A DNA stretch of 64,000 bases from Cyanophora paradoxa CCMP329. Its lineage: Eukaryota > Plantae > Glaucophyta. The translations under genes and the position numbers were made by a program. The notes under the pieces were generated by a model. It ran no database searches and had not been told where the DNA came from. It saw nothing but the letters and a program-made list of their open reading frames with translations. The stretch is from positions 124,001-188,000 of the forward strand of contig QPMI01000068.1 of NCBI GenBank assembly GCA_004431415.1, read 5' to 3'. Below, piece after piece: positions 1 to 36,220 of the stretch; position 1 is the first letter of the stretch; each line of letters begins with the position of its first letter.

Positions 1-2
1 AA

Positions 3-9302: not shown

Positions 9303-9322
9303 ATCTAAGGTATATATAGGGA

Positions 9323-13601: not shown

Positions 13602-13758
13602 AGGGGTCTTACTGAGAATGGTATGTGTAACAGGTGTAACGGGTTCATCCCAAACTTTCCCCTAGGAGGAGGTCGGCGGCTTGGAACTTTGGGGAGAACC
13701 TGTTACACCTGTTACACCTGTTACACGAGACTGAAAACCAAAAACTCCACCTGTTACA
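13602..13758. promoter_or_regulatory. Iteron hairpin, candidate replication origin (copy L)
   Basis: GTGTAACAG-type 9-mers x2 facing CTGTTACAC x3; arms 13625-13660 and 13683-13717 form an imperfect stem with a 22-nt loop; immediately downstream of the primase-helicase gene. Confidence 0.7.
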
Positions 13759-13829
13759 TTGTTAATTCTTACCATACACAGTAAGGTTATAAAAAATAGT
13801 AAGAAAGTAATCATTCAATTCATTTATAT

Positions 13830-16169
13830 TTACGCTTCTACATCATCATCCACAAATTCGTTATGGTGAATTATGGCTTTGATTCCATAATATCCACGAA
13901 TAACCGCGCCCCTTTCCCTCTTAGACTCAGACTTAACATTAAATACCTCACGCATCCGCTTACCGATGCTTGTCGGTTCCGCCTTATCATCCACTTGTCT
14001 ATATTTCTTCATGATAGAATCACTTGAAACAAAGTCGTCGCGGTTTCCTGTTCTTTCATAGGTATTTCTGATCCATTCACCGATCTTATCATTTTCAGCG
14101 AAATATTCCGATCCGTAATCGATAATAGATTGGGGCGGATTTTGCATAAGATGTGCGAGGTCTTGCGTTCTAAACATGTCCAAGAATATAGACATTTGAG
14201 CCATTTTATACTCGTCGTCATTGAGAAGATGCATTAAGGTAATATCGGCTTTCTTTTCACCTTCCTTAGGATTCGGCTTAAACACACTCTTGAATGTGCA
14301 ATAGATGAGCCGACGTAATATAGCTTCGTCAGCTTTGCTGAGAGAAAGGTTATCATTGGTGGACAGGAAGATTTGACACATCGGAATAAAGGCGACAGGA
14401 TCCTTAAAGAGAGCGCGAACCTTCATTTCGTTTCCACCTGTGATTTCCTTAATCTTACTGATTTGCAACTTATCGCCATCTTCCGCTTCGTTACTGAATA
14501 CAATTCGCTTCCCAAGAATTGCGGCAAGATCGGGCGTAGCATCTGATGAATTCTTTTTAGGCTTTGTCCAATAGCTCATGCTGATCGAGCCGTAGTAATC
14601 GCCGAATGTTTTCTTAGCCATTTCTTGCAGTAGCGACTTACCATTAGCACCTTTTCCTGACCAGAAATTGAATTTTTGGATATCAGTCCGACCTGTGAGA
14701 GCGAAAGCAAGCGCTCCGATAATATAGTTAAGCTCATCGGGATCTTCGATAATATCAGCGTAGATGGACTGAATCTTAGCGATTTTCTGACGGTCGGCAG
14801 CCATGAATTCATAGCCTACGGTCTTGCTAACCATATCATCGGGTTTTCCCTTACGGAAGGTCATAGTGTTAAGATCGAAAACACCATTCGTGAAACCGAT
14901 AATGTTAGGCACTGTATCCAATCTTTCGAAAAAGGTCGGATAACTAAACATAACGGTTAAGTCTGTCATAAGGGAAGTGCGGTAAGCAGTCTGTTTAAGA
15001 TTCTTTGCAATATTGAGAGCCAGTTTAGACTTTTCATCTAAGGATTCGCGGTTTTCTTCGTCTCTCATGGCTTTAAATCCAAGCTCATAGGAACGGTTCA
15101 TGAATGCCGCGCAAACCTTGCAGCTCATAGCGAGATAAATTCGCTTTGAGGTTTCGTCAGTCTCCCAAATACCGTAGTTAGTGTCAAATTCGAACCATGT
15201 CTTATTTGAGTAGCGATAATCATCTTTCAGGACTTCATAAGCTACTTTTGCGACATCGTAATGAGCGCCATTAGATCCAATCGCCAGATCAATAAGAGCG
15301 GAAAGCTTAACATATTGTTCTGTTTTGGTTACGATGTTAATAAATAGTTTTTTGCATCGGGAACTGTAATTAGAAACCACGAATTTGTCCTTATCGTTTC
15401 CCTGTGCTTTCATCACATACCAATTGTTCTTATCATGTGAATTATTGCAACAGGGGCATATTCCGCCTTTGTTCTGAGCAGTAAAGTTATAGCCATTTTC
15501 GGTTTGACTGATGATAGAAGGGAAATCAAAGCCAATCTCAATAAGTTTCTCATTGAGAGTGGTTAAGAATTCATTGCCTGTAATCTTTGCTTTGTCGATG
15601 TTAATAACAACATTGTGTTTATAGTTTTCGATCATCCAATTTTGGAAAGCCTCCGATGGCTCGATAAGCTCACATCCCGTAGCCCATGGCTCACGAATCC
15701 ATGTTTTACCGGGAGAGGGGCAAACATTGATAACACCAGCGGTTCCGGTAGAGCAAATCGTTTTAAAATCGATCTTCTCGTAGCCTTTGAAAGCTCCGGT
15801 TTTGTCGAATAGTTTCAGCTCATCGAACTTAGGAGGGCGTGCAAAGAACACATGGTAACCCTTCTTAGTCTTTTCAATTGGAATAGCAGCGGTGAAATCA
15901 TCAGGAAAGAGTTCTTTGAACTTGTTAAAGTCTTCTTCCTGATCGAAATCGACACAGAGGATGTTTTTAGCGAGGATACCCCACGCTACATACTTGTTTG
16001 ACTTAACCGCTTCTTCGTATCTCTTCCAATTCCATTTATCGTCCTTATGACCGAAAGCGGGAAGCTTTTCGACAGGATCGACGGGAATGAGAAGGTTTTT
16101 CGCCAGCTCATCGTTAGAGCGGAGCCAATTAGTGAGTTTCGTAAGCAGGGTTTTACTTTTGCTGTCCAT
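13830..16169 (-). CDS. PrimPol (AEP) - Zn finger - D5/SF3 helicase fusion (P4 alpha / D5-like primase-helicase)
   Basis: AEP motifs LCVDFD and TKKGYHVFF; CPCC...H...C; D5_N-like IGFTNGVFDL...GKPDDMVSKT; Walker A GKGANGKS; KRIVFSNE, KEITGG and RRL. Confidence 0.93.
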   Translation of the reverse strand: MDSKSKTLLTKLTNWLRSNDELAKNLLIPVDPVEKLPAFGHKDDKWNWKRYEEAVKSNKYVAWGILAKNILCVDFDQEEDFNKFKELFPDDFTAAIPIEKTKKGYHVFFARPPKFDELKLFDKTGAFKGYEKIDFKTICSTGTAGVINVCPSPGKTWIREPWATGCELIEPSEAFQNWMIENYKHNVVINIDKAKITGNEFLTTLNEKLIEIGFDFPSIISQTENGYNFTAQNKGGICPCCNNSHDKNNWYVMKAQGNDKDKFVVSNYSSRCKKLFINIVTKTEQYVKLSALIDLAIGSNGAHYDVAKVAYEVLKDDYRYSNKTWFEFDTNYGIWETDETSKRIYLAMSCKVCAAFMNRSYELGFKAMRDEENRESLDEKSKLALNIAKNLKQTAYRTSLMTDLTVMFSYPTFFERLDTVPNIIGFTNGVFDLNTMTFRKGKPDDMVSKTVGYEFMAADRQKIAKIQSIYADIIEDPDELNYIIGALAFALTGRTDIQKFNFWSGKGANGKSLLQEMAKKTFGDYYGSISMSYWTKPKKNSSDATPDLAAILGKRIVFSNEAEDGDKLQISKIKEITGGNEMKVRALFKDPVAFIPMCQIFLSTNDNLSLSKADEAILRRLIYCTFKSVFKPNPKEGEKKADITLMHLLNDDEYKMAQMSIFLDMFRTQDLAHLMQNPPQSIIDYGSEYFAENDKIGEWIRNTYERTGNRDDFVSSDSIMKKYRQVDDKAEPTSIGKRMREVFNVKSESKRERGAVIRGYYGIKAIIHHNEFVDDDVEA

Positions 16170-16358
16170 CGTTGCGCGTTCTACTTTAACGAAAGATAAA
16201 AATTTTTCTTGTTGATCATTTTTTGGCGCCTTGTCTTTAAATGCCCTACACTTTTTTTCTCGATGCTAAAAATCCGGATATTGTAACGCGATTACCGATT
16301 ATCGTCGGTAAGCCGCTCGAAAAATAAGTAATGATGTTTCAGCGGCAATAGCGGCATT

Positions 16359-16709
16359 TCAGTATTTGGGGGGACGTCCACGCTTTGCACTATGGATACC
16401 TTCCAATTCTTTGCGACGGTAATAGTTCTCCAAAGCTTGCTTTTTTTTGAATTCGCGGTATTCGGGGTCTTCCTCATACCTCTTTCGCATTTTCAGCACT
16501 TCACGGATCCGATAATTTAACCCATCCGCACTCTTAGGATTAAGTTTAACCTTTGGTGGTGAGTTAACAATTTCATCGCTGTCACTTTCAAATTCGAATT
16601 CAATAACGCTAACATCATCGGCGATAGCAGCCATTCTTACTTTCAGCACAGAAAATATTTTATCAGTTTGTAATATCGCTGTTTCTTTAAATACTTTTAG
16701 GGTTGTCAT
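16359..16709 (-). CDS. Small basic protein with C-terminal AT-hook, probable DNA-binding protein
   Basis: Ends KRGRPPKY; also KRYEEDPEYREFKKKQALENYYRRK. Start may be at 16709 or 16634. Confidence 0.6.
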   Translation of the reverse strand: MTTLKVFKETAILQTDKIFSVLKVRMAAIADDVSVIEFEFESDSDEIVNSPPKVKLNPKSADGLNYRIREVLKMRKRYEEDPEYREFKKKQALENYYRRKELEGIHSAKRGRPPKY

Positions 16710-16836
16710 TTTTTGGCGACCGGACAAGCTCTTGTCTACGTTTTTCTATCGCAGATGCAACGGCGTAAATCTGACGTTTCGCTAAAATAATATTATAGAC
16801 TTCTTCGAGCATTTTCCGATACTTATTACAAATATT

Positions 16837-17085
16837 TTAATTACCGCGATGTTCAAACGCTTGTCTTCGTAAATCATCACTTTGATCGACAGAAAACCGG
16901 CGACCATTTGTAGCGGGTTCTGAATGTGTGGAATCTACCGAATGTCTCCGGGACTCTCTACCTTCCGTTACATTATCTTCGGTATCTGAAAAACCAAGTT
17001 CTACGGTTGTATCACAGCATCCGCTGTGACAATTGCTTACAATGTGCAGGTTAAACATCTCTATGATCTTTTGGAGAAAGTCCAT
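16837..17085 (-). CDS. 82-aa hypothetical protein, copy 1 (copy 2 at 21829-22076 with a 1-bp deletion; copy 3 at 29316-29564)
   Basis: MDFLQKIIEMFNLHIVSNCHSGCC...; identical ORF in copies 1 and 3. Confidence 0.6.
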   Translation of the reverse strand: MDFLQKIIEMFNLHIVSNCHSGCCDTTVELGFSDTEDNVTEGRESRRHSVDSTHSEPATNGRRFSVDQSDDLRRQAFEHRGN

Positions 17086-17112
17086 CGAGAATCCTTTATT
17101 AATCAGATATAT

Positions 17113-17843
17113 TTAAAGCCAAACTCTCCGCTTGTATACTGTTGGTGCTACGGCTTTCTCTACTTCCGCTTTGGTAGCGCCAGGCTCTATGGTTCCCTTC
17201 TTTTGGTATTCATTTCATCCACCGCTTGCTCATCTATTTGTGTCTCTTTCTTCCGAATAAATTGAGTATCAGGAAGTCCCGTAATACCCATTCGGAAAAC
17301 CTCTTTACGTAACATCTCCTTCATTTTAGCGCGTTCTTTCTTCTCCATTACATACTGTTCCAGCGCACTCGACTTAGCTTCGAGATCACGTAGTTTAGCG
17401 GTCATTGTGTCCCATTCAGCCTTTGGCATTCGGTGGACGTTTTGAGTCGGAGCGACTTTATAAGTTACTTCTCCCGCCATCGATTGTATAACCTTGTCTG
17501 ATTCTTTCGAAACACCTTGACCTTTGCAGGCAAGTGCAAGATCTTGTAGACCAAGACCGCGATCATCGGCGGCACCGATAATACGACGCGCACCCTCACC
17601 GACCGCCTTCATCTTCGATGCATCCGGTGATACATTGAGTGTTTCACTTGTCGATGCTTGCGGTGCTTTGTCCGCCGGCGATTCTTCATAAGCAGCATTT
17701 AAAGGATCTTCTTCGGGTTGCGATGGTTTCACTTGATTAACTCCGTCAAATTTCATAGGTGTAGTATTAAGTGATCCGTAACTTTCACCACCGGAATATG
17801 AAATAGCCCCAGCGGGGACACCTACTTTACGTTTTGGCGGCAT
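17113..17843 (-). CDS. 243-aa hypothetical protein, copy 1 (1-bp homopolymer deletion near the 3' end)
   Basis: Matches the intact copy at 29592-30323. Confidence 0.7.
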
Positions 17844-17871
17844 TGTATCTTTAACTATATGGAAGATATTT

Positions 17872-18653
17872 TTAAAGTCCTCTCTTATATCGCATCAATT
17901 TATTCGAATGAACAGCGCTTTTAATCTCTTTTGGCGCTTCCTCCTTCTCGGGCGGTTTTAATTCGTCTTCTTTCTTTTTAGGTTTGCGATGGAACCGTGG
18001 GAATCCAAAGTTTTTAACGAGATCCGCTTTATCTACATAATACTTTACCGAATAATCAGCGGATGACCAAATGAGAAACTGATATGAATGAACGTATTCC
18101 TCAAACATCTTATAAAAAGCGTCTTTATCACGCATTATATTGTATTCTTCCTCAATTGCTTCAAGTTCTTTTCGATTAGCGGCGCTAAGAAACATTGCAT
18201 AATCCGAATTAACGCGAATAGTGGAAGAAACCTTACGCAGTTTCTGAGTTATGCAGATGCAGGACACCATACTATGGCGTCCACGCGAATATACAGAGCC
18301 AATTATTTTATCACGGGTTAGGTCTACTAACTCATTATCTATCAAATCATCCAGGATAATACACAATTGGTTAACGGGTTCCCCTTTCTCTATTTTCTCT
18401 TGTCTTTCATCGAGAAGTTTAGCGATGTAAGGCGCATCCCATTTACCGAGCTGTAATGTAGCGACATTATCCCAGAAATGATTAAAGCTAGTTCCACTTA
18501 TAACTAAACTACATCTAACTTTTTAGCATCGTGTAACTGTTTTAACCAATACTTTACCGCTTCCGACTTACCAGTAGCCGATTTTCCGATTGCAAGGACG
18601 CGAAAAGGTGGTTTTATCATTTCAGCGGCATTAAACTCTTCTAAATCCGCCAT
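17872..18653 (-). CDS. A32-like DNA packaging ATPase, copy 1 (1-bp homopolymer deletion at ~18507)
   Basis: Matches intact copies 2 and 3. Confidence 0.85.
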
Positions 18654-18735
18654 GGTGTTGTAGATCTTCTTAATAAAGATAGATAAAAATAACGAAATAT
18701 GACTAAATAATGGTAACAAACACATACACTGTTTA

Positions 18736-20131
18736 TTAGAGATTGACTCGCCTTAATCCGTCGCGGTCCGCTATGAGCATCGTGTGCATGAGAGCGCGCA
18801 CGTTAACAGTAAGGCGCATGTTTTGTGGACGTAGAGGGTTAGGAAACTTGATGAGGAGTTAGTTAGATCGACATAACCACTTTGGGCGATGTTACGAATC
18901 GCCTTCTCTCCGTCCAGACAGAAAGGCAGACCGGACAGGACATAGCGGTTAGCTTCCTTGTCCATGTTAGAACACTTGAATGCATCGGCGATGAGTTCCG
19001 CACCTTTGAGGAGTGGGATAGGCTCCGTGGAATAAAGACGCTGTCCGTTAATCTCCACCGTGTATGTGATATCCTTCGAGTCCGCATATGTTTTAAGGAC
19101 ACTGTGGGAGCCGCTGTTATCCTGACCAGTTTTAAGGTAATCACGAACCGAGAATAGAAGAGCGAAAGCAAGCCCCGACATTTGGCTAATGTTAATACGG
19201 TTAGGTTGGTTATTGCCGTTGGCGGCAACATCGAAAGCATCGACGTAGCCGATGTCGATAGCCGGAATCGCAATACCAGTAGTCTTAACCTTTTCAATGA
19301 CCGTAGCAAACAGCTCATCGGAAACATTGACGGCATGCATGTAAAGGCGTGGGTTGGTGATCATAATAGTATCCACAGGTGCAGATGATGGAATGGACAG
19401 ACCGGTAATGGTTCCAGTTGTGATGTTTTGACCAACATTGGCAAGAGTTACACCGGTGGCGCTTCCGAGACCATCATTAGCGGTTTGATCGGCAGCAGCT
19501 CCGACAACCGGAAGAGCGCGACCACCATAAGAAGTCTCAATGAATCCACCCTTAGCGGGGTCACGGAACCATGCGGTAACTACCATTTCCCCTGAGAGCG
19601 CGCCAAGGGGTAGATAGCTATTTAACCACGGCACCGGGATTTCCACAAAGAATGATCCACCAAGTCGGTTAGTTCCGTGTTGTGGGATGCCGTGTAGGAA
19701 GCCAGCCGAACGTTTCTTTTTCGCTAGCTGATCCTCCGAATAGTAAACCAGAGGGAAGTGAGCGAGGAAATCAGAAGGCACAGTGAAAAGGTAAGAGCCA
19801 TACGAGATTTCGAGACGCTCTACGAGAGCGCCGACGGGGCGGACATAACCATTACGAACCAAATCGGTATCACCGATGAAACCCGCAATTTCGCTAAGAT
19901 CAAAAGCGAGTTCCAGCTTACCGATAAAGTTGTAACGTGGGAGTTTGAAACTTACTCGTTGCGCAGCGTTGTTAGGGAAGGTTGTCGATGGGCTAACAGT
20001 AACGAGAACGGGTTTAGTCTTCGATTCCAGACCAAGCATAAGCGAGTTATCGAGGAAGAACGCCTTCGCCTCTTCGGGGTGGTTAGCGCCTCTTTGAGGG
20101 AAAGACGTTGGAGGGTTGTTGTGACGTCCAT
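18736..20131 (-). CDS. Major capsid protein, copy 1 (two 1-bp homopolymer deletions)
   Basis: Matches the intact 465-aa copy at 31217-32614. Confidence 0.8.
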
Positions 20132-20182
20132 GTTTTCTCTTTTACAATAATAAAATATAAAAATTCTGTGAATGATCCTTAA

Positions 20183-21193
20183 TTATCCAAAATTGCAAAT
20201 CACCGGATAATTTGGGTGAGTTTCTCTCATTCTCATTTTGAAATACTCATAAATAGGATCACCGGCGGGTTCTTCACCATATCGGATCTCGAAAGTTAAA
20301 TGGACAGGTTGCCCCTCGAAATCAATTAATTCGTTTTGAGCATTCACAATTTCTACGGACATTTGAGAGATTGCGAATGGTTTCCCGTAATACTTGTATA
20401 ACGGGTTTGCTTCTGTTGAATTATAAACAACGTGTTCCGCAAAGTCTTTATCTTGCACCACGAGTTTATGGAAGTATCCAGATAGGAGACCATCGGCACA
20501 TTGAACGAGGTCACCCAGTTCTTTTACTCTTACGAATAATACATTATCTTTGCAACTCTCAGTAGGGAATGTCGAGATGATACCATGAACATTAGCACCT
20601 GTAAAGATAGGATCATATTCAGTTGAGTAAATGTTAGATTTGATAAATCGGTTACCGGCTCTTCCGGCATCGAGACCAAGCATACGACCGTGTCGGTTTG
20701 ATTTTTCAGCCATCGAACTAGAAGGATCCTTAGCAGTTGTGAATGCTATGTAAAATTCATGAGGAGCATAGAATATTACGTGTTTCTCTACGGTATCCCA
20801 TTTACACCTTATTTGAGGATCAGGTGTTAAACCAGCAAACCGAGTATTAATACGGTTTACTAATTCCTGATGCGTATTAATTACTAAGCTTCCGCTACTT
20901 TGACCGGGACGAATTGAGCGCCAAACATCAAAACCGGGAGCGGGAGCATTGGTAGAGTTGATCGCTGAATTAGCGATACTAAAATTAATAGTGAAAGAAT
21001 CAGTAACTGTGACATCTCCGGGGACACTTTCATCGCTGATAAGAGGAATGGAGTTATAGAATTCCGCCGAAACAAGTCGGACAGCTCTTACATTCTCATA
21101 CATCTTTGGTAATTCAGCGATAAACTTAGACGTCGGCGCATCGAGATTAGGAGCCTGTCTAAATGATGAAACTTCGACATATTCGACCGGCAT
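20183..21193 (-). CDS. Minor capsid (penton) protein 1, copy 1
   Basis: VEVSSFR...SKFIAELPKMYENVRAVRLVSAEFYNS and VEIVNAQNELIDFEGQPVHLTFEI, a single-jelly-roll penton signature. Confidence 0.8.
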   Translation of the reverse strand: MPVEYVEVSSFRQAPNLDAPTSKFIAELPKMYENVRAVRLVSAEFYNSIPLISDESVPGDVTVTDSFTINFSIANSAINSTNAPAPGFDVWRSIRPGQSSGSLVINTHQELVNRINTRFAGLTPDPQIRCKWDTVEKHVIFYAPHEFYIAFTTAKDPSSSMAEKSNRHGRMLGLDAGRAGNRFIKSNIYSTEYDPIFTGANVHGIISTFPTESCKDNVLFVRVKELGDLVQCADGLLSGYFHKLVVQDKDFAEHVVYNSTEANPLYKYYGKPFAISQMSVEIVNAQNELIDFEGQPVHLTFEIRYGEEPAGDPIYEYFKMRMRETHPNYPVICNFG

Positions 21194-21222
21194 GTTTCTT
21201 TAATCTATATTCATATAATAAA

Positions 21223-21689
21223 ATGATTCGTCTTATCAATGTCGATAGTAGAGATCGACAACAAGGACAAAAAGAAAACTCTTATAGGGTTGCACTCACA
21301 AGACCAATAACCAAACCACGGCAATGTCGCGTTTTGTATGCTGAGATTCCGAACAGTATATATAATTCAATAGGAACCGATTATATAACGATTCGTTATA
21401 ATATCGATGGTGTTTATATAAATCAGCAACTGTTTCCATTACCGAGTGGTTACATAAATCAAGGACACTTTGGCGTGACACAACCATATAATTATGGTTT
21501 GAACTTTGCGGTTACTGAGAATATATTATTTAAGATCTACTACAATCCGACGACATACAAATTAGAGTTTTATAGTAATTTCGCTTTTGAACTCATCGCC
21601 GGAAATAATAGGATAGCTAAGTTATTGGGTCTCAGTGCAACAACATTATTAGGTAGCGCAGGACAGATAATAGATAATAATAGGTCTTT
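21223..21689 (+). pseudogene. Penton 2, 5' half, truncated at junction J1
   Basis: Identical to 26215 onward up to ...IIDNNRS, then jumps to the sequence of 16694; the chimeric frame ends at 21864. Confidence 0.85.
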
Positions 21690-22103
21690 TAGGGTTGTCA
21701 TTTTTTGGCGACCGGACAAGCTCTTGTCTACGTTTTTCTATCGCAGATGCAACGGCGTAAATCTGACGTTTCGCTTAAATAATATTATAGACTTCTTCGA
21801 GCATTTTCCGATACTTATTACAAATATTTTAATTACCGCGATGTTCAAACGCTTGTCTTCGTAAATCATCACTTTGATCGACAGAAAACCGGCGACCATT
21901 TGTAGCGGGTTCTGAATGTGTGGAATCTACCGAATGTCTCCGGACTCTCTACCTTCCGTTACATTATCTTCGGTATCTGAAAAACCAAGTTCTACGGTTG
22001 TATCACAGCATCCGCTGTGACAATTGCTTACAATGTGCAGGTTAAACATCTCTATGATCTTTTGGAGAAAGTCCATCGAGAATCCTTTATTAATCAGATA
22101 TAT

Positions 22104-22834: not shown

Positions 22835-22862
22835 TGTATCTTTAACTATATGGAAGATATTT

Positions 22863-23645: not shown

Positions 23646-23727
23646 GGTGTTGTAGATCTTCTTAATAAAGATAGATAAAAATAACGAAATATGACTAAAT
23701 AATGGTAACAAACACATACACTGTTTA

Positions 23728-25123: not shown

Positions 25124-25174
25124 GTTTTCTCTTTTACAATAATAAAATATAAAAATTCTGTGAATGATCCTTAA

Positions 25175-26185: not shown

Positions 26186-26214
26186 GTTTCTTTAATCTAT
26201 ATTCATATAATAAA

Positions 26215-27126: not shown

Positions 27127-27830
27127 TCTTCTTTGTCATCGGTGAATGGGTCATGATCACCGAATATATCCACAAGTATTATATTATTATCATTTAGATC
27201 GGCTATATACCATCCTGTTTCTTTTGTCCAAATTGCACCATGTTTATGTAGCAATTTACGGAGACTTTTACGGCTTCTGATGACTAAACCGAATTCTTCG
27301 AATTTATCATGAACACTTGAAAGATCACGTTTAGGCACGTTTAGATAAACCCGACGGTCTAACTTTTCTCTTTCCAGCCGATGTGCAATATAATCAATTT
27401 CATGCCTTACACGAACCAGAAGAAAACATAATTCGTTTTGTAGCTCGATTTCATCATTGAAAACCTCCGTTAAATCCAAGATTTTGCGATAATGTGCAAT
27501 GTTAACCCTTTCATCCTCTTCTATTTCATCATCATCCATACGACAAAACCTATTATCATAGGTATGAACATATACTTCTTTGGTATTTGACGGATAGTAA
27601 CCAATAGATGAGATATGAGTAAGTTTAAGATCATCACCGAATCCATGCCGTCCGACTTGAATAGCATGACTAACTATATGCATTTGATCAAGATGAAACT
27701 TATCTATTTTAAGAATTTCTGAAAAAGCCGGGTTTCCTTCTATTTTAATATCGAAAACACGCCCTCTTATGTCATCAGCATCTCTAATAATACGTCTCGT
27801 TCCATCAGGTGCAATTTCGACGCGAGCCAT
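27123..27830 (-). CDS. 235-aa protein with DUF5710-like C-terminus, copy a
   Basis: RVYLNVP...KHGAIWTKETGWYI resembles the DUF5710 pattern YLNVP...GARWD...WY. Confidence 0.55.
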   Translation of the reverse strand: MARVEIAPDGTRRIIRDADDIRGRVFDIKIEGNPAFSEILKIDKFHLDQMHIVSHAIQVGRHGFGDDLKLTHISSIGYYPSNTKEVYVHTYDNRFCRMDDDEIEEDERVNIAHYRKILDLTEVFNDEIELQNELCFLLVRVRHEIDYIAHRLEREKLDRRVYLNVPKRDLSSVHDKFEEFGLVIRSRKSLRKLLHKHGAIWTKETGWYIADLNDNNIILVDIFGDHDPFTDDKED

Positions 27831-28306
27831 CGTTACTTATCTCTTACACAGAAAATATTTTTCTTTCTTAACCCTCTATATCACAACTTCCTTAAATCAA
27901 TTTGTGTAGCTCACGGGGCTTTCATTTTTCGCACGATATACAGTGAGACTTTCATTTTTACTGTCGATAAAATCAGGTTACCTGAGTGTTAAACGTCAAG
28001 GTTTTCGCAAAATATGAAAAAGTTAACGATAGAACAGACAGTAAAACAGGTTGCTGTAAGTGTTTATTGATGAACAACAAAACAATTATTTGTAAATACT
28101 CAATAAACTGATTTACTGTTATATTTAAAGATCTCTTCTTGTAGCGGAGCGAAAGAAATGTAATATATCATCGTTAATAGAAGAGAGGATAATAGGTATC
28201 TTTGGTGGATCTCCACATACGGAGAGACATAAAGTATCGAGATTTCCGACACGGTAATAAGTGGTAAAAGAAGATGTAACAGGTTAATTAATTGTGATTC
28301 AGTGTA

Positions 28307-28379
28307 GTGTAACAGGTGTAACAGGTTCTCCCCAAAGTTCCAAGCCGCCGACCTCCTCCTAGGGGAAAGTTTGGGATGA
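28307..28379. promoter_or_regulatory. Iteron hairpin, truncated copy ending at junction J2
   Basis: Identical to 35797-35869, then CAT, then internal penton-1 sequence. Confidence 0.8.
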
Positions 28380-28382
28380 CAT

Positions 28383-29176
28383 TACTTTGACCGGGACGAA
28401 TTGAGCGCCAAACATCAAAACCGGGAGCGGGAGCATTGGTAGAGTTGATCGCTGAATTAGCGATACTAAAATTAATAGTGAAAGAATCAGTAACTGTGAC
28501 ATCTCCGGGGACACTTTCATCGCTGATAAGAGGAATGGAGTTATAGAATTCCGCCGAAACAAGTCGGACAGCTCTTACATTCTCATACATCTTTGGTAAT
28601 TCAGCGATAAACTTAGACGTCGGCGCATCGAGATTAGGAGCCTGTCTAAATGATGAAACTTCGACATATTCGACCGGCATGTTTCTTTAATCTATATTCA
28701 TATAATAAAATGATTCGTCTTATCAATGTCGATAGTAGAGATCGACAACAAGGACAAAAAGAAAACTCTTATAGGGTTGCACTCACAAGACCAATAACCA
28801 AACCACGGCAATGTCGCGTTTTGTATGCTGAGATTCCGAACAGTATATATAATTCAATAGGAACCGATTATATAACGATTCGTTATAATATCGATGGTGT
28901 TTATATAAATCAGCAACTGTTTCCATTACCGAGTGGTTACATAAATCAAGGACACTTTGGCGTGACACAACCATATAATTATGGTTTGAACTTTGCGGTT
29001 ACTGAGAATATATTATTTAAGATCTACTACAATCCGACGACATACAAATTAGAGTTTTATAGTAATTTCGCTTTTGAACTCATCGCCGGAAATAATAGGA
29101 TAGCTAAGTTATTGGGTCTCAGTGCAACAACATTATTAGGTAGCGCAGGACAGATAATAGATAATAATAGGTCTTT
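28383..29176. pseudogene. 5' fragments of penton 1 (28383-28680, minus) and penton 2 (28710-29176, plus) between J2 and the second J1
   Basis: Copy of 20896-21689. Confidence 0.88.
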
Positions 29177-29591
29177 TAGGGTTGTCATTTTTTGGCGACC
29201 GGACAAGCTCTTGTCTACGTTTTTCTATCGCAGATGCAACGGCGTAAATCTGACGTTTCGCTTAAATAATATTATAGACTTCTTCGAGCATTTTCCGATA
29301 CTTATTACAAATATTTTAATTACCGCGATGTTCAAACGCTTGTCTTCGTAAATCATCACTTTGATCGACAGAAAACCGGCGACCATTTGTAGCGGGTTCT
29401 GAATGTGTGGAATCTACCGAATGTCTCCGGGACTCTCTACCTTCCGTTACATTATCTTCGGTATCTGAAAAACCAAGTTCTACGGTTGTATCACAGCATC
29501 CGCTGTGACAATTGCTTACAATGTGCAGGTTAAACATCTCTATGATCTTTTGGAGAAAGTCCATCGAGAATCCTTTATTAATCAGATATAT

Positions 29592-30323
29592 TTAAAGCCA
29601 AACTCTCCGCTTGTATACTGTTGGTGCTACGGCTTTCTCTACTTCCGCTTTGGTAGCGCCAGGCTCTATGGTTCCCTTCTTTTTGGTATTCATTTCATCC
29701 ACCGCTTGCTCATCTATTTGTGTCTCTTTCTTCCGAATAAATTGAGTATCAGGAAGTCCCGTAATACCCATTCGGAAAACCTCTTTACGTAACATCTCCT
29801 TCATTTTAGCGCGTTCTTTCTTCTCCATTACATACTGTTCCAGCGCACTCGACTTAGCTTCGAGATCACGTAGTTTAGCGGTCATTGTGTCCCATTCAGC
29901 CTTTGGCATTCGGTGGACGTTTTGAGTCGGAGCGACTTTATAAGTTACTTCTCCCGCCATCGATTGTATAACCTTGTCTGATTCTTTCGAAACACCTTGA
30001 CCTTTGCAGGCAAGTGCAAGATCTTGTAGACCAAGACCGCGATCATCGGCGGCACCGATAATACGACGCGCACCCTCACCGACCGCCTTCATCTTCGATG
30101 CATCCGGTGATACATTGAGTGTTTCACTTGTCGATGCTTGCGGTGCTTTGTCCGCCGGCGATTCTTCATAAGCAGCATTTAAAGGATCTTCTTCGGGTTG
30201 CGATGGTTTCACTTGATTAACTCCGTCAAATTTCATAGGTGTAGTATTAAGTGATCCGTAACTTTCACCACCGGAATATGAAATAGCCCCAGCGGGGACA
30301 CCTACTTTACGTTTTGGCGGCAT
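29592..30323 (-). CDS. 243-aa hypothetical protein, intact copy 3 (NLS-like PPKRKV N-terminus, coiled coil)
   Basis: Open ORF downstream of the ATPase; starts MPPKRKV. Confidence 0.75.
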   Translation of the reverse strand: MPPKRKVGVPAGAISYSGGESYGSLNTTPMKFDGVNQVKPSQPEEDPLNAAYEESPADKAPQASTSETLNVSPDASKMKAVGEGARRIIGAADDRGLGLQDLALACKGQGVSKESDKVIQSMAGEVTYKVAPTQNVHRMPKAEWDTMTAKLRDLEAKSSALEQYVMEKKERAKMKEMLRKEVFRMGITGLPDTQFIRKKETQIDEQAVDEMNTKKKGTIEPGATKAEVEKAVAPTVYKRRVWL

Positions 30324-30351
30324 TGTATCTTTAACTATATGGAAGATATTT

Positions 30352-31134
30352 TTAAAGTCCTCTCTTATATCGCATCAATTTATTCGAATGAACAGCGCTT
30401 TTAATCTCTTTTGGCGCTTCCTCCTTCTCGGGCGGTTTTAATTCGTCTTCTTTCTTTTTAGGTTTGCGATGGAACCGTGGGAATCCAAAGTTTTTAACGA
30501 GATCCGCTTTATCTACATAATACTTTACCGAATAATCAGCGGATGACCAAATGAGAAACTGATATGAATGAACGTATTCCTCAAACATCTTATAAAAAGC
30601 GTCTTTATCACGCATTATATTGTATTCTTCCTCAATTGCTTCAAGTTCTTTTCGATTAGCGGCGCTAAGAAACATTGCATAATCCGAATTAACGCGAATA
30701 GTGGAAGAAACCTTACGCAGTTTCTGAGTTATGCAGATGCAGGACACCATACTATGGCGTCCACGCGAATATACAGAGCCAATTATTTTATCACGGGTTA
30801 GGTCTACTAACTCATTATCTATCAAATCATCCAGGATAATACACAATTGGTTAACGGGTTCCCCTTTCTCTATTTTCTCTTGTCTTTCATCGAGAAGTTT
30901 AGCGATGTAAGGCGCATCCCATTTACCGAGCTGTAATGTAGCGACATTATCCCAGAAATGATTAAAGCTAGTTCCACTTATAACTAAAACTACATCTAAC
31001 TTTTTAGCATCGTGTAACTGTTTTAACCAATACTTTACCGCTTCCGACTTACCAGTAGCCGATTTTCCGATTGCAAGGACGCGAAAAGGTGGTTTTATCA
31101 TTTCAGCGGCATTAAACTCTTCTAAATCCGCCAT
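30352..31134 (-). CDS. A32-like DNA packaging ATPase, copy 3
   Basis: Same motifs as copy 2. Confidence 0.92.
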   Translation of the reverse strand: MADLEEFNAAEMIKPPFRVLAIGKSATGKSEAVKYWLKQLHDAKKLDVVLVISGTSFNHFWDNVATLQLGKWDAPYIAKLLDERQEKIEKGEPVNQLCIILDDLIDNELVDLTRDKIIGSVYSRGRHSMVSCICITQKLRKVSSTIRVNSDYAMFLSAANRKELEAIEEEYNIMRDKDAFYKMFEEYVHSYQFLIWSSADYSVKYYVDKADLVKNFGFPRFHRKPKKKEDELKPPEKEEAPKEIKSAVHSNKLMRYKRGL

Positions 31135-31216
31135 GGTGTTGTAGATCTTCTTAATAAAGATAGATAAAAATAACGAAATATGACTAAATAATGGTAACAA
31201 ACACATACACTGTTTA

Positions 31217-32614
31217 TTAGAGATTGACTCGCCTTAATCCGTCGCGGTCCGCTATGAGCATCGTGTGCATGAGAGCGCGCACGTTAACAGTAAGGCGCAT
31301 GTTTTGTGGGACGTAGAGGGTTAGGAAACTTGATGAGGAGTTAGTTAGATCGACATAACCACTTTGGGCGATGTTACGAATCGCCTTCTCTCCGTCCAGA
31401 CAGAAAGGCAGACCGGACAGGACATAGCGGTTAGCTTCCTTGTCCATGTTAGAACACTTGAATGCATCGGCGATGAGTTCCGCACCTTTGAGGAGTGGGA
31501 TAGGCTCCGTGGAATAAAGACGCTGTCCGTTAATCTCCACCGTGTATGTGATATCCTTCGAGTCCGCATATGTTTTAAGGACACTGTGGGAGCCGCTGTT
31601 ATCCTGACCAGTTTTAAGGTAATCACGAACCGAGAATAGAAGAGCGAAAGCAAGCCCCGACATTTGGCTAATGTTAATACGGTTAGGTTGGTTATTGCCG
31701 TTGGCGGCAACATCGAAAGCATCGACGTAGCCGATGTCGATAGCCGGAATCGCAATACCAGTAGTCTTAACCTTTTCAATGACCGTAGCAAACAGCTCAT
31801 CGGAAACATTGACGGCATGCATGTAAAGGCGTGGGTTGGTGATCATAATAGTATCCACAGGTGCAGATGATGGAATGGACAGACCGGTAATGGTTCCAGT
31901 TGTGATGTTTTGACCAACATTGGCAAGAGTTACACCGGTGGCGCTTCCGAGACCATCATTAGCGGTTTGATCGGCAGCAGCTCCGACAACCGGAAGAGCG
32001 CGACCACCATAAGAAGTCTCAATGAATCCACCCTTAGCGGGGTCACGGAACCATGCGGTAACTACCATTTCCCCTGAGAGCGCGCCAAGGGGTAGATAGC
32101 TATTTAACCACGGCACCGGGATTTCCACAAAGAATGATCCACCAAGTCGGTTAGTTCCGTGTTGTGGGATGCCGTGTAGGAAGCCAGCCGAACGTTTCTT
32201 TTTCGCTAGCTGATCCTCCGAATAGTAAACCAGAGGGAAGTGAGCGAGGAAATCAGAAGGCACAGTGAAAAGGTAAGAGCCATACGAGATTTCGAGACGC
32301 TCTACGAGAGCGCCGACGGGGCGGACATAACCATTACGAACCAAATCGGTATCACCGATGAAACCCGCAATTTCGCTAAGATCAAAAGCGAGTTCCAGCT
32401 TACCGATAAAGTTGTAACGTGGGAGTTTGAAACTTACTCGTTGCGCAGCGTTGTTAGGGAAGGTTGTCGATGGGCTAACAGTAACGAGAACGGGTTTAGT
32501 CTTCGATTCCAGACCAAGCATAAGCGAGTTATCGAGGAAGAACGCCTTCGCCTCTTCGGGGGTGGTTAGCGCCTCTTTGAGGGAAAGACGTTGGAGGGTT
32601 GTTGTGACGTCCAT
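31217..32614 (-). CDS. Double-jelly-roll major capsid protein, intact (465 aa)
   Basis: Size and position between penton and ATPase; VSFKLPR, GALVERLEISYG, FFVEIPVPW, YLPLGALSGEMVVTAWFR and TVEINGQ motifs typical of DJR capsids. Confidence 0.87.
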   Translation of the reverse strand: MDVTTTLQRLSLKEALTTPEEAKAFFLDNSLMLGLESKTKPVLVTVSPSTTFPNNAAQRVSFKLPRYNFIGKLELAFDLSEIAGFIGDTDLVRNGYVRPVGALVERLEISYGSYLFTVPSDFLAHFPLVYYSEDQLAKKKRSAGFLHGIPQHGTNRLGGSFFVEIPVPWLNSYLPLGALSGEMVVTAWFRDPAKGGFIETSYGGRALPVVGAAADQTANDGLGSATGVTLANVGQNITTGTITGLSIPSSAPVDTIMITNPRLYMHAVNVSDELFATVIEKVKTTGIAIPAIDIGYVDAFDVAANGNNQPNRINISQMSGLAFALLFSVRDYLKTGQDNSGSHSVLKTYADSKDITYTVEINGQRLYSTEPIPLLKGAELIADAFKCSNMDKEANRYVLSGLPFCLDGEKAIRNIAQSGYVDLTNSSSSFLTLYVPQNMRLTVNVRALMHTMLIADRDGLRRVNL

Positions 32615-32665
32615 GTTTTCTCTTTTACAATAATAAAATATAAAAATTCTGTGAATGATCCTTAA

Positions 32666-33676
32666 TTATCCAAAATTGCAAATCACCGGATAATTTGGGT
32701 GAGTTTCTCTCATTCTCATTTTGAAATACTCATAAATAGGATCACCGGCGGGTTCTTCACCATATCGGATCTCGAAAGTTAAATGGACAGGTTGCCCCTC
32801 GAAATCAATTAATTCGTTTTGAGCATTCACAATTTCTACGGACATTTGAGAGATTGCGAATGGTTTCCCGTAATACTTGTATAACGGGTTTGCTTCTGTT
32901 GAATTATAAACAACGTGTTCCGCAAAGTCTTTATCTTGCACCACGAGTTTATGGAAGTATCCAGATAGGAGACCATCGGCACATTGAACGAGGTCACCCA
33001 GTTCTTTTACTCTTACGAATAATACATTATCTTTGCAACTCTCAGTAGGGAATGTCGAGATGATACCATGAACATTAGCACCTGTAAAGATAGGATCATA
33101 TTCAGTTGAGTAAATATTAGATTTGATAAATCGGTTACCGGCTCTTCCGGCATCGAGACCAAGCATACGACCGTGTCGGTTTGATTTTTCAGCCATCGAA
33201 CTAGAAGGATCCTTAGCAGTTGTGAATGCTATGTAAAATTCATGAGGAGCATAGAATATTACGTGTTTCTCTACGGTATCCCATTTACACCTTATTTGAG
33301 GATCAGGTGTTAAACCAGCAAACCGAGTATTAATACGGTTTACTAATTCCTGATGCGTATGAATTACTAAGCTTCCGCTACTTTGACCGGGACGAATTGA
33401 GCGCCAAACATCAAAACCGGGAGCGGGAGCATTGGTAGAGTTGATCGCTGAATTAGCGATACTAAAATTAATAGTGAAAGAATCAGTAACTGTGACATCT
33501 CCGGGGACACTTTCATCGCTGATAAGAGGAATGGAGTTATAGAATTCCGCCGAAACAAGTCGGACAGCTCTTACATTCTCATACATCTTTGGTAATTCAG
33601 CGATAAACTTAGACGTCGGCGCATCGAGATTAGGAGCCTGTCTAAATGATGAAACTTCGACATATTCGACCGGCAT
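32666..33676 (-). CDS. Minor capsid (penton) protein 1, copy 3
   Basis: Same protein sequence as copy 2. Confidence 0.8.
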   Translation of the reverse strand: MPVEYVEVSSFRQAPNLDAPTSKFIAELPKMYENVRAVRLVSAEFYNSIPLISDESVPGDVTVTDSFTINFSIANSAINSTNAPAPGFDVWRSIRPGQSSGSLVIHTHQELVNRINTRFAGLTPDPQIRCKWDTVEKHVIFYAPHEFYIAFTTAKDPSSSMAEKSNRHGRMLGLDAGRAGNRFIKSNIYSTEYDPIFTGANVHGIISTFPTESCKDNVLFVRVKELGDLVQCADGLLSGYFHKLVVQDKDFAEHVVYNSTEANPLYKYYGKPFAISQMSVEIVNAQNELIDFEGQPVHLTFEIRYGEEPAGDPIYEYFKMRMRETHPNYPVICNFG

Positions 33677-33705
33677 GTTTCTTTAATCTATATTCATATA
33701 ATAAA

Positions 33706-34616
33706 ATGATTCGTCTTATCAATGTCGATAGTAGAGATCGACAACAAGGACAAAAAGAAAACTCTTATAGGGTTGCACTCACAAGACCAATAACCAAACC
33801 ACGGCAATGTCGCGTTTTGTATGCTGAGATTCCGAACAGTATATATAATTCAATAGGAACCGATTATATAACGATTCGTTATAATATCGATGGTGTTTAT
33901 ATAAATCAGCAACTGTTTCCATTACCGAGTGGTTACATAAATCAAGGACACTTTGGCGTGACACAACCATATAATTATGGTTTGAACTTTGCGGTTACTG
34001 AGAATATATTATTTAAGATCTACTACAATCCGACGACATACAAATTAGAGTTTTATAGTAATTTCGCTTTTGAACTCATCGCCGGAAATAATAGGATAGC
34101 TAAGTTATTGGGTCTCAGTGCAACAACATTATTAGGTAGCGCAGGACAGATAATAGATAATAATAGGTCTTTATATGCTCCCGAAAATATCTTATTTTAC
34201 GCGGGGACTCCGATAACACCAGATCACCCACAGTGGGGGATAACATTCGAGGGAGCGGAGTTAGTAGCGGCACCGATGGCTTTTAAAGCGGTTAGTCCAA
34301 AGATGGCGGACATGAACGCTGAACAATACATTTATATGCACATTAAAGAAATTGCCACATTTGCTTCGAACCATCATGTAGTTCCGAAATCGCAACCACA
34401 GAACCAAGGCGCAATTTTGCGTTTACAATTAAGTCAGGACATCGGAAAGTATATATACCATAGCGGAGAGCATGGCGAATACATAAAATAAACGATCGTA
34501 ATTTGGTGATTAATGAGTTAACGGTAGAATTTCGTGATTATTACGGTGATCTTGTTGATATGAACGGAATCGATAATTCGTTTGAGTTGGAGTTTTTAGC
34601 GTTAGGTATTGATTAG
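33706..34616 (+). CDS. Minor capsid (penton) protein 2, second full-length copy (1-bp A-run deletion at ~34486)
   Basis: Matches 26215-27126. Confidence 0.8.
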
Positions 34617-35320
34617 TCTTCTTTGTCATCGGTGAATGGGTCATGATCACCGAATATATCCACAAGTATTATATTATTATCATTTAGATCGGCTATATAC
34701 CATCCTGTTTCTTTTGTCCAAATTGCACCATGTTTATGTAGCAATTTACGGAGACTTTTACGGCTTCTGATGACTAAACCGAATTCTTCGAATTTATCAT
34801 GAACACTTGAAAGATCACGTTTAGGCACGTTTAGATAAACCCGACGGTCTAACTTTTCTCTTTCCAGCCGATGTGCAATATAATCAATTTCATGCCTTAC
34901 ACGAACCAGAAGAAAACATAATTCGTTTTGTAGCTCGATTTCATCATTGAAAACCTCCGTTAAATCCAAGATTTTGCGATAATGTGCAATGTTAACCCTT
35001 TCATCCTCTTCTATTTCATCATCATCCATACGACAAAACCTATTATCATAGGTATGAACATATACTTCTTTGGTATTTGACGGATAGTAACCAATAGATG
35101 AGATATGAGTAAGTTTAAGATCATCACCGAATCCATGCCGTCCGACTTGAATAGCATGACTAACTATATGCATTTGATCAAGATGAAACTTATCTATTTT
35201 AAGAATTTCTGAAAAAGCCGGGTTTCCTTCTATTTTAATATCGAAAACACGCCCTCTTATGTCATCAGCATCTCTAATAATACGTCTCGTTCCATCAGGT
35301 GCAATTTCGACGCGAGCCAT
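34613..35320 (-). CDS. 235-aa DUF5710-like protein, copy b
   Basis: Same protein sequence as 27123-27830. Confidence 0.55.
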   Translation of the reverse strand: MARVEIAPDGTRRIIRDADDIRGRVFDIKIEGNPAFSEILKIDKFHLDQMHIVSHAIQVGRHGFGDDLKLTHISSIGYYPSNTKEVYVHTYDNRFCRMDDDEIEEDERVNIAHYRKILDLTEVFNDEIELQNELCFLLVRVRHEIDYIAHRLEREKLDRRVYLNVPKRDLSSVHDKFEEFGLVIRSRKSLRKLLHKHGAIWTKETGWYIADLNDNNIILVDIFGDHDPFTDDKED

Positions 35321-35796
35321 CGTTACTTATCTCTTACACAGAAAATATTTTTCTTTCTTAACCCTCTATATCACAACTTCCTTAAATCAATTTGTGTAGC
35401 TCACGGGGCTTTCATTTTTCGCACGATATACAGTGAGACTTTCATTTTTACTGTCGATAAAATCAGGTTACCTGAGTGTTAAACGTCAAGGTTTTCGCAA
35501 AATATGAAAAAGTTAACGATAGAACAGACAGTAAAACAGGTTGCTGTAAGTGTTTATTGATGAACAACAAAACAATTATTTGTAAATACTCAATAAACTG
35601 ATTTACTGTTATATTTAAAGATCTCTTCTTGTAGCGGAGCGAAAGAAATGTAATATATCATCGTTAATAGAAGAGAGGATAATAGGTATCTTTGGTGGAT
35701 CTCCACATACGGAGAGACATAAAGTATCGAGATTTCCGACACGGTAATAAGTGGTAAAAGAAGATGTAACAGGTTAATTAATTGTGATTCAGTGTA

Positions 35797-35911
35797 GTGT
35801 AACAGGTGTAACAGGTTCTCCCCAAAGTTCCAAGCCGCCGACCTCCTCCTAGGGGAAAGTTTGGGATGAACCCGTTACACCTGTTACACTAACCATTTTC
35901 AGTAAGAACCC
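35797..35911. promoter_or_regulatory. Iteron hairpin, candidate origin (copy R), inverted relative to copy L
   Basis: 35797-35889 is the exact reverse complement of 13625-13717 (93 bp); weaker similarity continues to ~35911. Confidence 0.75.
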
Positions 35912-36220
35912 AATAAAATAACATAATATCAGTCATAAATAATCATATAATATCATCAAGTATCATATAGTATCTTTCTTATAATATACACTCCGCTTCC
36001 CACGCAGCACATTGTAGTTGTTTACGTTATAATGCGGCGCCATATCAGCTCCATATTATCCTCGCATTATATCCAAAAGAACATTTTATTATTTTTCGAC
36101 GGAATTCCGTTAGAATTTCATACATATTTCTTTTGATACATTTTACATATTTTACATATTTTCAATCACAATACATACACATATTATTTCCATATCATTA
36201 TACACGATAATGCGTAATAT

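Follow-up and report, generated by a model that had tools for sequence, protein, structure and literature searches.

How Polinton-like viruses (PLVs) and D5-type primase-helicases choose the site at which replication starts is the question addressed here. It is raised by a stretch of 64,000 nucleotides of Cyanophora paradoxa DNA (the window), in which two inverted hairpins made of short facing iterons bracket a primase-helicase gene and a set of morphogenetic genes, with the gene of a Polinton-type family B polymerase (pPolB) outside them. We read the hairpins as twin origin copies of a dual-replicase Polinton-like virus, not as the ends of a separate 9.8-kb element, and give this reading a probability slightly above one half (about 0.55). 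Repeats acting as PLV origins and repeats separating replicases have already been proposed in the accessible text of two sources (PMC11296320; 10.64898/2026.10.13.758929). New here are a defined iteron and the twin layout.

The hairpin pair

The core of the left hairpin (L, 13625-13717) is the exact reverse complement of the right one (R, 35797-35889) over 93 bp, and neither side extends this exact identity. Both copies fold as DNA hairpins (free energies of -29.8 and -26.9 kcal/mol, with z scores of -8.6 and -7.7), with an energy equalled by none of 200 shuffles. All six occurrences of the iteron doublet in the window fall inside the hairpins, whereas shuffled sequence contained 0.00 on average (100 shuffles). 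The L spacer is 61 bp long, GC-rich and self-complementary; a third inner iteron reaches to 13726, and a lone iteron lies about 30 bp inward of each hairpin copy. AT content is 43% in the hairpin spacer and 64-79% in the DNA outside the arms. From the PrimPol-D5 stop codon to the last iteron of L the distance is 103 bp, and the span of 22,265 bp between the hairpins, less duplications of 4,992 and 7,487 bp, leaves an enclosed block of 9,786 bp. The original prediction of an exact 93-bp inverted pair, of a stem-loop of facing iterons in each copy, of L just downstream of the primase-helicase gene and of a block of about 9.8 kb without the duplications is reproduced in all these respects.

That prediction also held the flanks to be diverged, which is true of the inner side and further outside and not of the DNA adjoining the outer arms. 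With mismatches allowed, the match between L and R grows to 134 bp at 92.5% (13586-13717 against 35930-35797), because a box of about 20 bp is common to both outer sides (16/20) and is followed by AT-rich bases (12/20). Beyond these bases and along the inner flanks, L and R agree at 2-10 of 20 positions per ungapped 20-bp bin. Conservation of the R outer box up to 35906, followed by divergence, is seen in three contigs of run X18 and three of run X3. An assembly artefact was rejected as the source of the pair, since both hairpin regions with their distinct flanks are covered in all four runs.

The element and its genes

The hairpins lie in an AT-rich element (35-50% GC, against mostly 60-80% in the flanks) whose family is multi-copy, with many divergent contigs in each of the four runs. 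Genes for a PrimPol-SF3 helicase and for pPolB are both present, and the element is likely a Polinton-like virus; its features are collected in Table 1.

Table 1. Coordinates of the features discussed, in window positions
Feature	Coordinates	Strand	Remarks
Zinc-finger / HNH-endonuclease-associated fragment	9323..9595	+	Pfam and PHROG searches
Polinton-type family B polymerase (pPolB)	9925..13194	-	PHROG 1907 E 7.6e-9; outside hairpin pair
Outer box of L	13605..13624	.	16/20 identical to that of R; 79% AT DNA outward
Hairpin L, candidate origin	13625..13726	.	2 outer and 3 inner 9-bp iterons
Lone inner iteron of L	13749..13757	-	mirrored at 35766-35774 and 28276-28284
PrimPol (AEP)-D5/SF3 helicase, 779 aa	13830..16169	-	Pfam Prim-Pol, D5_N, DUF5906
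Tandem duplication 1	16694..26681	+	4,992-bp unit, 99.8% identical
Tandem duplication 2	20896..35869	+	7,487-bp unit, 99.9% identical; ends within hairpin
Putative minor capsid protein 2, intact	26155..27126	+	shifted copy 33646-34491
Third hairpin copy, 73 bp, truncated	28307..28379	.	duplication junction J2 cuts at loop/arm boundary
A32-like packaging ATPase, intact	30352..31206	-	Pfam Pox_A32 E 4e-10
Likely major capsid protein (MCP)	31217..32614	-	Atlas 0.98 to Capsid_N clusters; hhalign E 3.5e-4
Putative minor capsid protein 1	32666..33676	-	further copies 20183-21193, 25175-26185
235-aa ORF beside hairpin R	34613..35320	-	second copy 27123-27830; no family found
Hairpin R	35797..35889	.	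exact inverted copy of L; right edge of AT-rich element 632 bp away
Outer box of R	35890..35909	.	retained to 35906 in other family contigs, divergence beyond
31-bp inverted repeat around ~240 bp	36218..36521	.	right edge of AT-rich element

Junction J1 of the first duplication was found in contigs of two of the four runs, both from one sample, and junction J2 of the second is among the joints listed for none of the four, a non-listing that is no proof of absence. Contigs of unit C are deeper than those of unit B in X18, X2 and X3, as J2 would predict, and hairpin R exceeds its neighbouring bins 3-11 times in summed depth; since depth is no copy number, neither observation counts as evidence. 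Comparison of 8400-9950 or 1-1300 with 35890-37100 for terminal inverted repeats of the whole element gave a best E of 0.019, and the left end was not located. Searches of IMG/VR yielded no relatives via the primase, an MCP alignment or the PrimPol-type homologue P0007; the outer-box pattern has one match there, without a tblastn match to any element protein.

A model of the PrimPol-SF3 protein folded with 60 sequences (pLDDT 77) resolves residues ~270-770 and leaves the PrimPol domain at low confidence. Its last 80 residues are predicted to form a winged helix (pLDDT 81-92), and residues 286-752 align with the SaPI5 primase-helicase 7om0 (Z 29.2, rmsd 5.3, 395 residues aligned). The protein is likely the origin-binding initiator. 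In pPolB a Cys/His pair is present together with the polymerase motifs, and the exonuclease motifs look degenerate. An in-frame stop at 12415-12417 in the window is absent from the contigs of all four runs, and 27 of the 31 variants listed across copies fall at third codon positions, and the gene is under purifying selection.

Other copies of the A32-like ATPase lie at 22863-23717 and, broken, at 17872-18725. For the MCP candidate, the Atlas clusters that it resembles contain Capsid_N in 12-18% of their members (recognition 1830, below 2300), and the hhalign comparison with a 56-sequence giant-virus MCP profile reached a probability of 37%, five control proteins reaching at most 0.14%. Pfam, PHROG and PDB sequence searches gave this candidate no useful match, an HMM search using the giant-virus MCP profile reached no significance (best E 0.028, for P0002), and just two full-length relatives are present among 1.84 billion representatives. 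The nearest relative of the MCP is a EukProt protein. The two putative minor capsid ORFs, which we assume to merit the name from a penton-like N-terminal motif, give weak pairwise matches (E 0.08 and 0.017) and no match in Pfam or PHROG. Of the gene content first attributed to the block, the primase-helicase and the ATPase stand, and the capsid and penton labels are tentative, their evidence being weak.

The block had further been said to exclude pPolB and an integrase. The polymerase does lie outside the pair; an integrase was not detected by Pfam in 21 ORFs and 96 frames of the window (93 of the 150 frames of at least 100 aa outside the element and satellite, plus three short ones). An RVE integrase is likewise absent from the frames scanned, and the element may continue to the left of the window. 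No recombinase was found in the scanned window frames by Pfam or PHROG, and ORF 326-955 and frame 9129-9302, supposed halves of one fibre-like gene, gave no homologue when searched.

Iterons beside helicase genes in other DNA

An exact scan of IMG/VR for the 16-bp iteron doublet gave at least 123 loci, 80 of them with flanks. Of the 80 flanked loci listed, 38 have at least two iterons in each direction within 200 bp; with a scrambled 16-mer the count was 0 of 34. Once 17 collagen-coding loci had been removed, a DUF927, VapE or AAA_25 helicase was found to end at the doublet in 22 of the 33 listed loci with an adjacent long ORF, and in none of the 13 adjacent ORFs of the scrambled-motif control; among the matches listed, clustered at 50% identity, the doublet-adjacent helicases make up 11 of 20 clusters. 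These bacterial helicases are mainly of the DUF927 or VapE type, not D5. The full facing pattern occurs at eight metagenome and four genome loci, and nine of these 12 (three of the nine being one element) lie at, or at most 0.9 kb from, the 3' end of a D5, DUF927 or VapE helicase gene. Spacers elsewhere have 49-84% AT (six metagenome loci) and 55-73% AT (four genome loci), versus 43% here. The twin layout is without parallel among the 12 loci, because none has a distant second copy of its spacer.

The closest protein relatives found are giant-virus D5 proteins. Facing 7-mer iterons at most 400 nt downstream were seen at none of 74 giant-virus D5 loci (5 of 79 having been dropped for short flanks or no match) and at 10 of 1310 controls; an extension of the iteron origin to giant-virus D5 genes is unsupported.

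A P4/SaPI-like internal origin, as first suggested, is supported by comparative evidence, that is, by the doublet 3' of helicase genes and by the predicted winged helix. The likeness does not extend to the spacer, which is GC-rich, whereas SaPI origins have an AT-rich centre, a point against an origin. One X18 contig, in which 13239 is joined to 13770 and hairpin L is missing, likewise speaks against the twin-origin reading, as do the DUF927 or VapE type of most of the bacterial helicases, the lack of facing iterons at the giant-virus D5 loci and the twin layout having no parallel. On these comparisons the pair is best read, and likely, as two inverted copies of a SaPI/pRN1-like origin.

Other readings of the pair

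The hairpins could instead be the still-active termini of a primase-type PLV of about 10 kb that excises, replicates and is packaged apart from the pPolB arm. A replicase, an ATPase, a likely MCP and putative pentons all lie within the block, the outer box is common to both copies and symmetric, as expected of termini, and polisuviruses with tandem or dual replicases and internal repeats are on record (accessible text of 10.64898/2026.10.13.758929). One X18 contig joins 13645 to 13707 on opposite strands (depth 135, side 35), and its best reading is a reversed loop adjoining the primase-side flank. Excision of the block by arm exchange between L and R would leave the same joint; however, it is a single contig in one of four runs, for which a plain loop flip is an equally good explanation. 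Against free termini, contigs of the pPolB-side flank reach L or its outer edge in two of the four runs (13268-13640 in X2, 13268-13587 in X3) at depths similar to that of the primase gene, coverage continues outside R to about 36,500 (X3 contig 36176-36504), and neither Pfam nor PHROG reveals an integrase or recombinase in the block. The independent 9.8-kb subgenome originally envisaged is weakened by this joining of the pPolB-side flank to L and by the third-position variants of pPolB, and we regard it as unlikely that the hairpins are such termini. Two full replication modes, with protein-primed pPolB serving the whole element beside a bacterial-type iteron pair, the 9.8-kb primase-capsid block being excised or flipped by arm exchange and then maintained as a subgenome, and the loop flip-flopping from copy to copy, seem distinctly unlikely.

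Alternatively, recombination at the pair might turn the morphogenesis block round with respect to pPolB, giving flip-flop isomers. That the 93 bp match exactly, non-iteron spacer included, amid diverged flanks is suggestive of exchange between the two copies; signs of rearrangement at the hairpin are the loop-flip contig and a duplication that breaks off where loop and arm meet. We nevertheless find inversion very unlikely: the scanned frames hold no recombinase, which could be supplied in trans, no joint of L-outer to R-inner DNA is among those listed, though unitigs, which break inside the 93-bp repeat, could hardly show one, and J2 is likewise missing from the listed joints.

Were L the origin and R a recent functionless copy produced by local rearrangement, the exact identity would fit, at a locus where duplications have been frequent of late (99.8-99.9% identical). 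However, the core is exact and the outer box is not, the lone inner iteron is retained at a different spacing, and contigs with a diverged R-inner flank occur (22 differences in 255), none of them shown to enter the hairpin, all of which leaves this view with a slim chance. Giant-virus and virophage transcripts end at 3'-end hairpins, and a role of the pair as such RNA-level signals would suit the stable fold of L shortly past the primase-helicase stop, but it is highly improbable, as no ATG-started ORF of at least 60 aa ends at R, which is located upstream of the 235-aa ORF at a distance of 477 bp, the hairpins have no Rfam match, and structure alone needs neither exact iterons nor an exact second copy. 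Sigma-70 scans gave no match.

A possible mode of initiation

If the hairpins are twin origins, the winged-helix domains of the helicase, with one hexamer on each arm, would recognise the TGTAAC iterons in the way that SaPI5 PriRep recognises TGCAAC. The GC-rich spacer would extrude a pRN1-type stem-loop and the AT-rich DNA beyond the arms would melt; the PrimPol domain would prime, and either PrimPol or pPolB would elongate. Synthesis from the two inverted origins would begin on opposite strands, or run in opposite directions, over the morphogenesis block. Occasional exchange between the copies may keep L and R identical, and a possible ancestor of the pair is the end module of a primase-type PLV to which the pPolB arm was added later.

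Published inverted repeats of PLVs have been proposed as origins without a defined binding site in the accessible text. The present element offers a candidate 6-bp iteron, a single base removed from a SaPI iteron of solved structure, and a domain of 80 residues that is predicted to recognise it, and a direct binding assay is therefore feasible. With its twin layout and a conserved pPolB alongside, it also exemplifies two replicases sharing a genome, which bears on the swapping of replication modules among these viruses.

Comparison with known systems

With regard to what defines a Polinton-like virus, a packaging ATPase and multi-copy, low-GC insertion in a eukaryotic genome are present, as is the protein-primed PolB that marks a Maverick-Polinton in the strict sense. 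A literature search that took in few subscription papers listed no report, for PLVs or for virophages, of genome isomers or of an origin built from iterons.

Phage P4 has a characteristic iteron sequence and two separate iteron sites, and its alpha protein resembles the present case as a primase-helicase with two such sites, binding being predicted here. Unlike here, the P4 primase is of the Toprim type, not AEP, and the P4 sites are not known to form an exact inverted pair around capsid genes. Iteron binding by the P4 alpha primase-helicase involves a winged helix (PMC4234260, accessible text).

In SaPI5, the winged helix of PriRep binds TGCAACC/TGCAAC iterons (10.64898/2026.10.17.759575, available part). 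The likeness extends to a primase-SF3 helicase with a C-terminal winged helix (here predicted), to opposed short iterons directly 3' of the helicase gene (true of L and not of R) and to the motif, TGCAAC and TGTAAC being one base apart. The SaPI origin, as the accessible texts describe it, is single, about 300 bp long and AT-rich at its centre (10.64898/2026.10.17.759575; PMC7581432), whereas here a GC-rich 93-bp hairpin occurs twice, inverted, in a eukaryotic element with pPolB.

Plasmid pRN1 and the phage BIP-1 replicon share with this element a PrimPol-SF3-winged helix protein (the winged helix being predicted here) whose gene has a stem-loop of about 100 nt immediately on its 3' side; in pRN1 this stem-loop is required (100 nt; PMC4234260, accessible text). 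By the same text, pRN1 has one origin, no iterons and a stem-loop of unconserved sequence, and specific in vitro binding of ORF904 to the stem-loop region was not seen (PMC4234260); here, in contrast, iterons are present and recur in unrelated elements.

The 'replicative end module' of PLVs likewise places inverted repeats, proposed as origin, beside a primase-helicase. In the accessible description these repeats are termini, with an adjacent tyrosine recombinase and no defined iteron (PMC11296320), whereas here the left repeat is internal and no recombinase was found in the window.

A further related layout is that of tandem and dual-replicase polisuviruses with internal repeats, in which pPolB and AEP-SF3 occur together and repeats other than TIRs separate the modules (10.64898/2026.10.13.758929, seen in part). 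The text of that paper does not use the words iteron or hairpin; its Figure 6 legend, as available, names palindromic repeats, and the layout may be similar. In polisuviruses, according to the same accessible text, the repeats flank a single replicase and set it off from the morphogenic module, whereas the repeats described here enclose the primase together with the morphogenic genes and leave pPolB outside.

Paired hairpins as candidate origins

We read hairpins L and R as the paired origins of a dual-replicase element (probability about 0.55), a model built on the observed anatomy, gene content, family structure and motif association. The two copies are reverse complements without mismatch across 93 bp (93/93 positions) and the remaining 20-bp flanking bins match at 2-10 positions, which bears out the exact pair with diverged flanks of the original prediction. 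Allowing mismatches lengthens the repeat to 134 bp (92.5% identity), because L and R share an outer box (16/20) and AT-rich bases. Both copies fold as hairpins (z -8.6 and -7.7) within flanking DNA of 64-79% AT. The iteron is a 9-bp repeat with a TGTAAC core; its 16-bp doublet has six matches in the window, every one inside the hairpins (expected 0.00).

Features of the window
Feature	Position	Size	Remarks
Hairpin L	13625-13717	93 bp	3' of PrimPol-D5 gene
Hairpin R	35797-35889	93 bp
Third hairpin copy	28307-28379	73 bp	ends at duplication junction
PrimPol-D5 gene	13830-16169 (-)
pPolB	9925-13194 (-)		outside hairpin pair
Inverted repeat	36218-36521	31 bp	around ~240 bp A-rich DNA; right edge of element
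Contig-covered segment	36176-36504		X3 contig, 16 differences
Second, unrelated duplicated unit	46663-47220, 48183-48743		99.3% identical
Its hairpins	46765-46852, 48285-48372	88 bp	GC-rich, z -6.5
AT-rich stretch	1-960		window start; 210-aa ORF part
Short frame	9129-9302		left edge of element
GC-rich tandem array	39962-46250		unit ~139 bp
Smaller GC-rich tandem array	38049-39330
YqaJ-like viral recombinase domain	63388-63999		E 6e-30; cut by window end

Gene content and duplications

The hairpins enclose the PrimPol-D5 protein, an A32 ATPase, a probable capsid protein, a pair of putative pentons and some further, unassigned ORFs. The predicted primase-helicase and ATPase are present; the MCP is likely from two weak indications, its Atlas features and its similarity to a giant-virus capsid profile for which the controls were clean, and the pentons stay putative. 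Only two full-length relatives of the likely capsid protein were found. Its residues 232-296 are matched 16 times, as repeats, in a 4,613-aa database protein (P0003). Left of L lie a zinc-finger fragment and the family B polymerase, pPolB, correctly placed outside the pair by the prediction; the single in-frame stop of this gene does not appear in the contigs of any of four runs. The integrase also expected outside the block was not recovered, no integrase or recombinase having been found in the window frames scanned. By our reading, the exonuclease motifs of pPolB look degenerate. In other such viruses, loss of the pPolB exonuclease is described as accompanying gain of a helicase (10.1101/2024.03.18.585575).

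The order of units is A B C, B C D, C, B C D E owing to two tandem duplications of 4,992 and 7,487 bp, whose copies are 0-4 substitutions and 1-6 indel bases apart per unit. Once these are removed the block measures 9,786 bp, in agreement with the ~9.8 kb proposed. The element has 35-50% GC and its flanks mostly 60-80%. Sequence comparison revealed no terminal repeats that enclose the AT-rich element as a whole; the 31-bp inverted repeat at its right edge may represent an end structure used in protein priming.

Elsewhere in the window, the 88-bp hairpins consist of facing GTACCCC-type repeats, with further such repeats alongside and no rep gene found near them. The ORF part at the window start and the short frame at the element's left edge, separated by ~8 kb of GC-rich DNA, resemble by their motifs the halves of one split fibre-like gene, for which a search found no homologue.

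A multi-copy family

The element is a multi-copy family: the primase region is present in twenty runs of the source organism, and many divergent contigs are spread over the whole element in all four runs compared (from at most three samples). On the pPolB side, contigs starting at 13268 reach 13640 in run X2 and 13587 in X3, with depths similar to that of the primase gene. Among the best-supported variants listed (top 40 rows of each variant table), third codon positions account for 27 of 31 in pPolB, with the stop position excluded, and for 10 of 11 in the ATPase gene. Hence pPolB belongs to the same element as a conserved component. This lessens the case for a subgenome independent of it, and a nested replicon of the enclosed block is unlikely. 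The outer box of R is kept to 35906 in three contigs each of X18 and X3 that diverge thereafter, so the hairpin module outlasts its flanks; one X18 contig, which joins 13239 to 13770 without hairpin L, tells against uniformity.

A further X18 contig (one of the four runs, depth 135) carries an opposite-strand joint from 13645 to 13707. Read in register, this joint shows the loop turned round relative to the arm and flank on the primase side, consistent with either a flipped loop or an exchange of arms between L and R. The junction of the 7,487-bp duplication (J2) cuts the hairpin at this same loop/arm boundary. Among the joints listed for the unitigs, which break within a repeat of 93 bp, the 4,992-bp junction (J1) occurs in X17 and X18, from one sample, and J2 does not occur. 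The joint and the J2 cut are hints, not proof, that the hairpin is a rearrangement site; a truly invertible segment between the hairpins is improbable.

Iterons beside helicase genes elsewhere

The exact doublet occurs at no fewer than (at least) 123 IMG/VR loci, 80 of those listed having flanks; iterons run in both directions at 38 of these 80, as against 0/34 with a scrambled motif. With 17 collagen-coding loci left out, a long ORF ends at the motif in 33 listed loci, 22 of them encoding DUF927, VapE or AAA_25 helicases (0/13 in controls), or 11 of 20 listed independent clusters. The full facing pattern, opposed iterons around a spacer, was found at 12 metagenome and genome loci, and in nine cases it sits by the 3' end of a D5, DUF927 or VapE helicase gene. 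These associations support the TGTAAC iteron as a probable mark of helicase origins elsewhere. Facing iterons lie downstream of none of 74 giant-virus D5 genes, the closest protein relatives found. A second distant copy was found at none of the 12 facing-pattern loci, although several of these have short flanks. That the second copy in the window lacks a function is a slim prospect.

At IMG/VR, metagenome and genome loci (L015, L019, L035, L072, L077, L237, L316, L317 and L319, among others) the iteron lies 3' of DUF927, VapE and D5 genes, whose helicases belong to different superfamilies; this suggests a winged-helix recognition code common to unrelated initiators. Plasmid-like contigs (L239/L240/L243 and L242) carry amplified iteron arrays of 1-2 kb behind a DUF927 primase-helicase gene; in L242 the unit is also inverted, with copies within about 1 kb.

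Proposed mechanism

In the paired-origin model, the winged helix of the primase-helicase would bind the iterons, and the stem-loop would extrude while the AT-rich flanks melt. PrimPol would then prime and either PrimPol or pPolB elongate, L and R firing in opposite directions, and exchange between them would homogenise the copies. A role of the hairpins as an RNA signal is the least probable reading.

Comparison with known systems

The winged helix of SaPI5 PriRep binds TGCAAC(C) iterons (10.64898/2026.10.17.759575), the origins of SaPI and SCCmec immediately follow the helicase gene on its 3' side (PMC7581432) and pRN1 needs a stem-loop 3' of its PrimPol-SF3-wH gene (PMC4234260). In structural comparison the window PrimPol-D5 protein can be aligned to members of the D5 family and to SaPI5 (7om0, the SaPI5 primase-helicase: Z 29.2, rmsd 5.3, 395 residues) and ends in a predicted winged helix with a basic wing. 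The predicted SaPI/P4-like internal origin finds support in the iteron-helicase association and the SaPI5-like fold, but the centre does not fit: unlike that of SaPI, the window spacer is GC-rich (43% AT, below the 49-84% of ten comparison spacers) and self-complementary, resembling the pRN1 stem-loop.

Inverted-repeat origins for Polinton-like virus (PLV) primase-helicases (PMC11296320) and dual-replicase genomes with internal repeats (10.64898/2026.10.13.758929) have already been proposed, and pPolB or primase-helicase modules are common in PLVs (PMC10120064, PMC7805220, 10.64898/2026.06.19.733378). Our search of mainly open-access literature listed no paper that describes, for a PLV, either an origin made of iterons or isomeric genomes. 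The novelty lies in a defined SaPI-like iteron set within a pRN1-like hairpin, of which one eukaryotic element holds two exactly matching, inverted copies.
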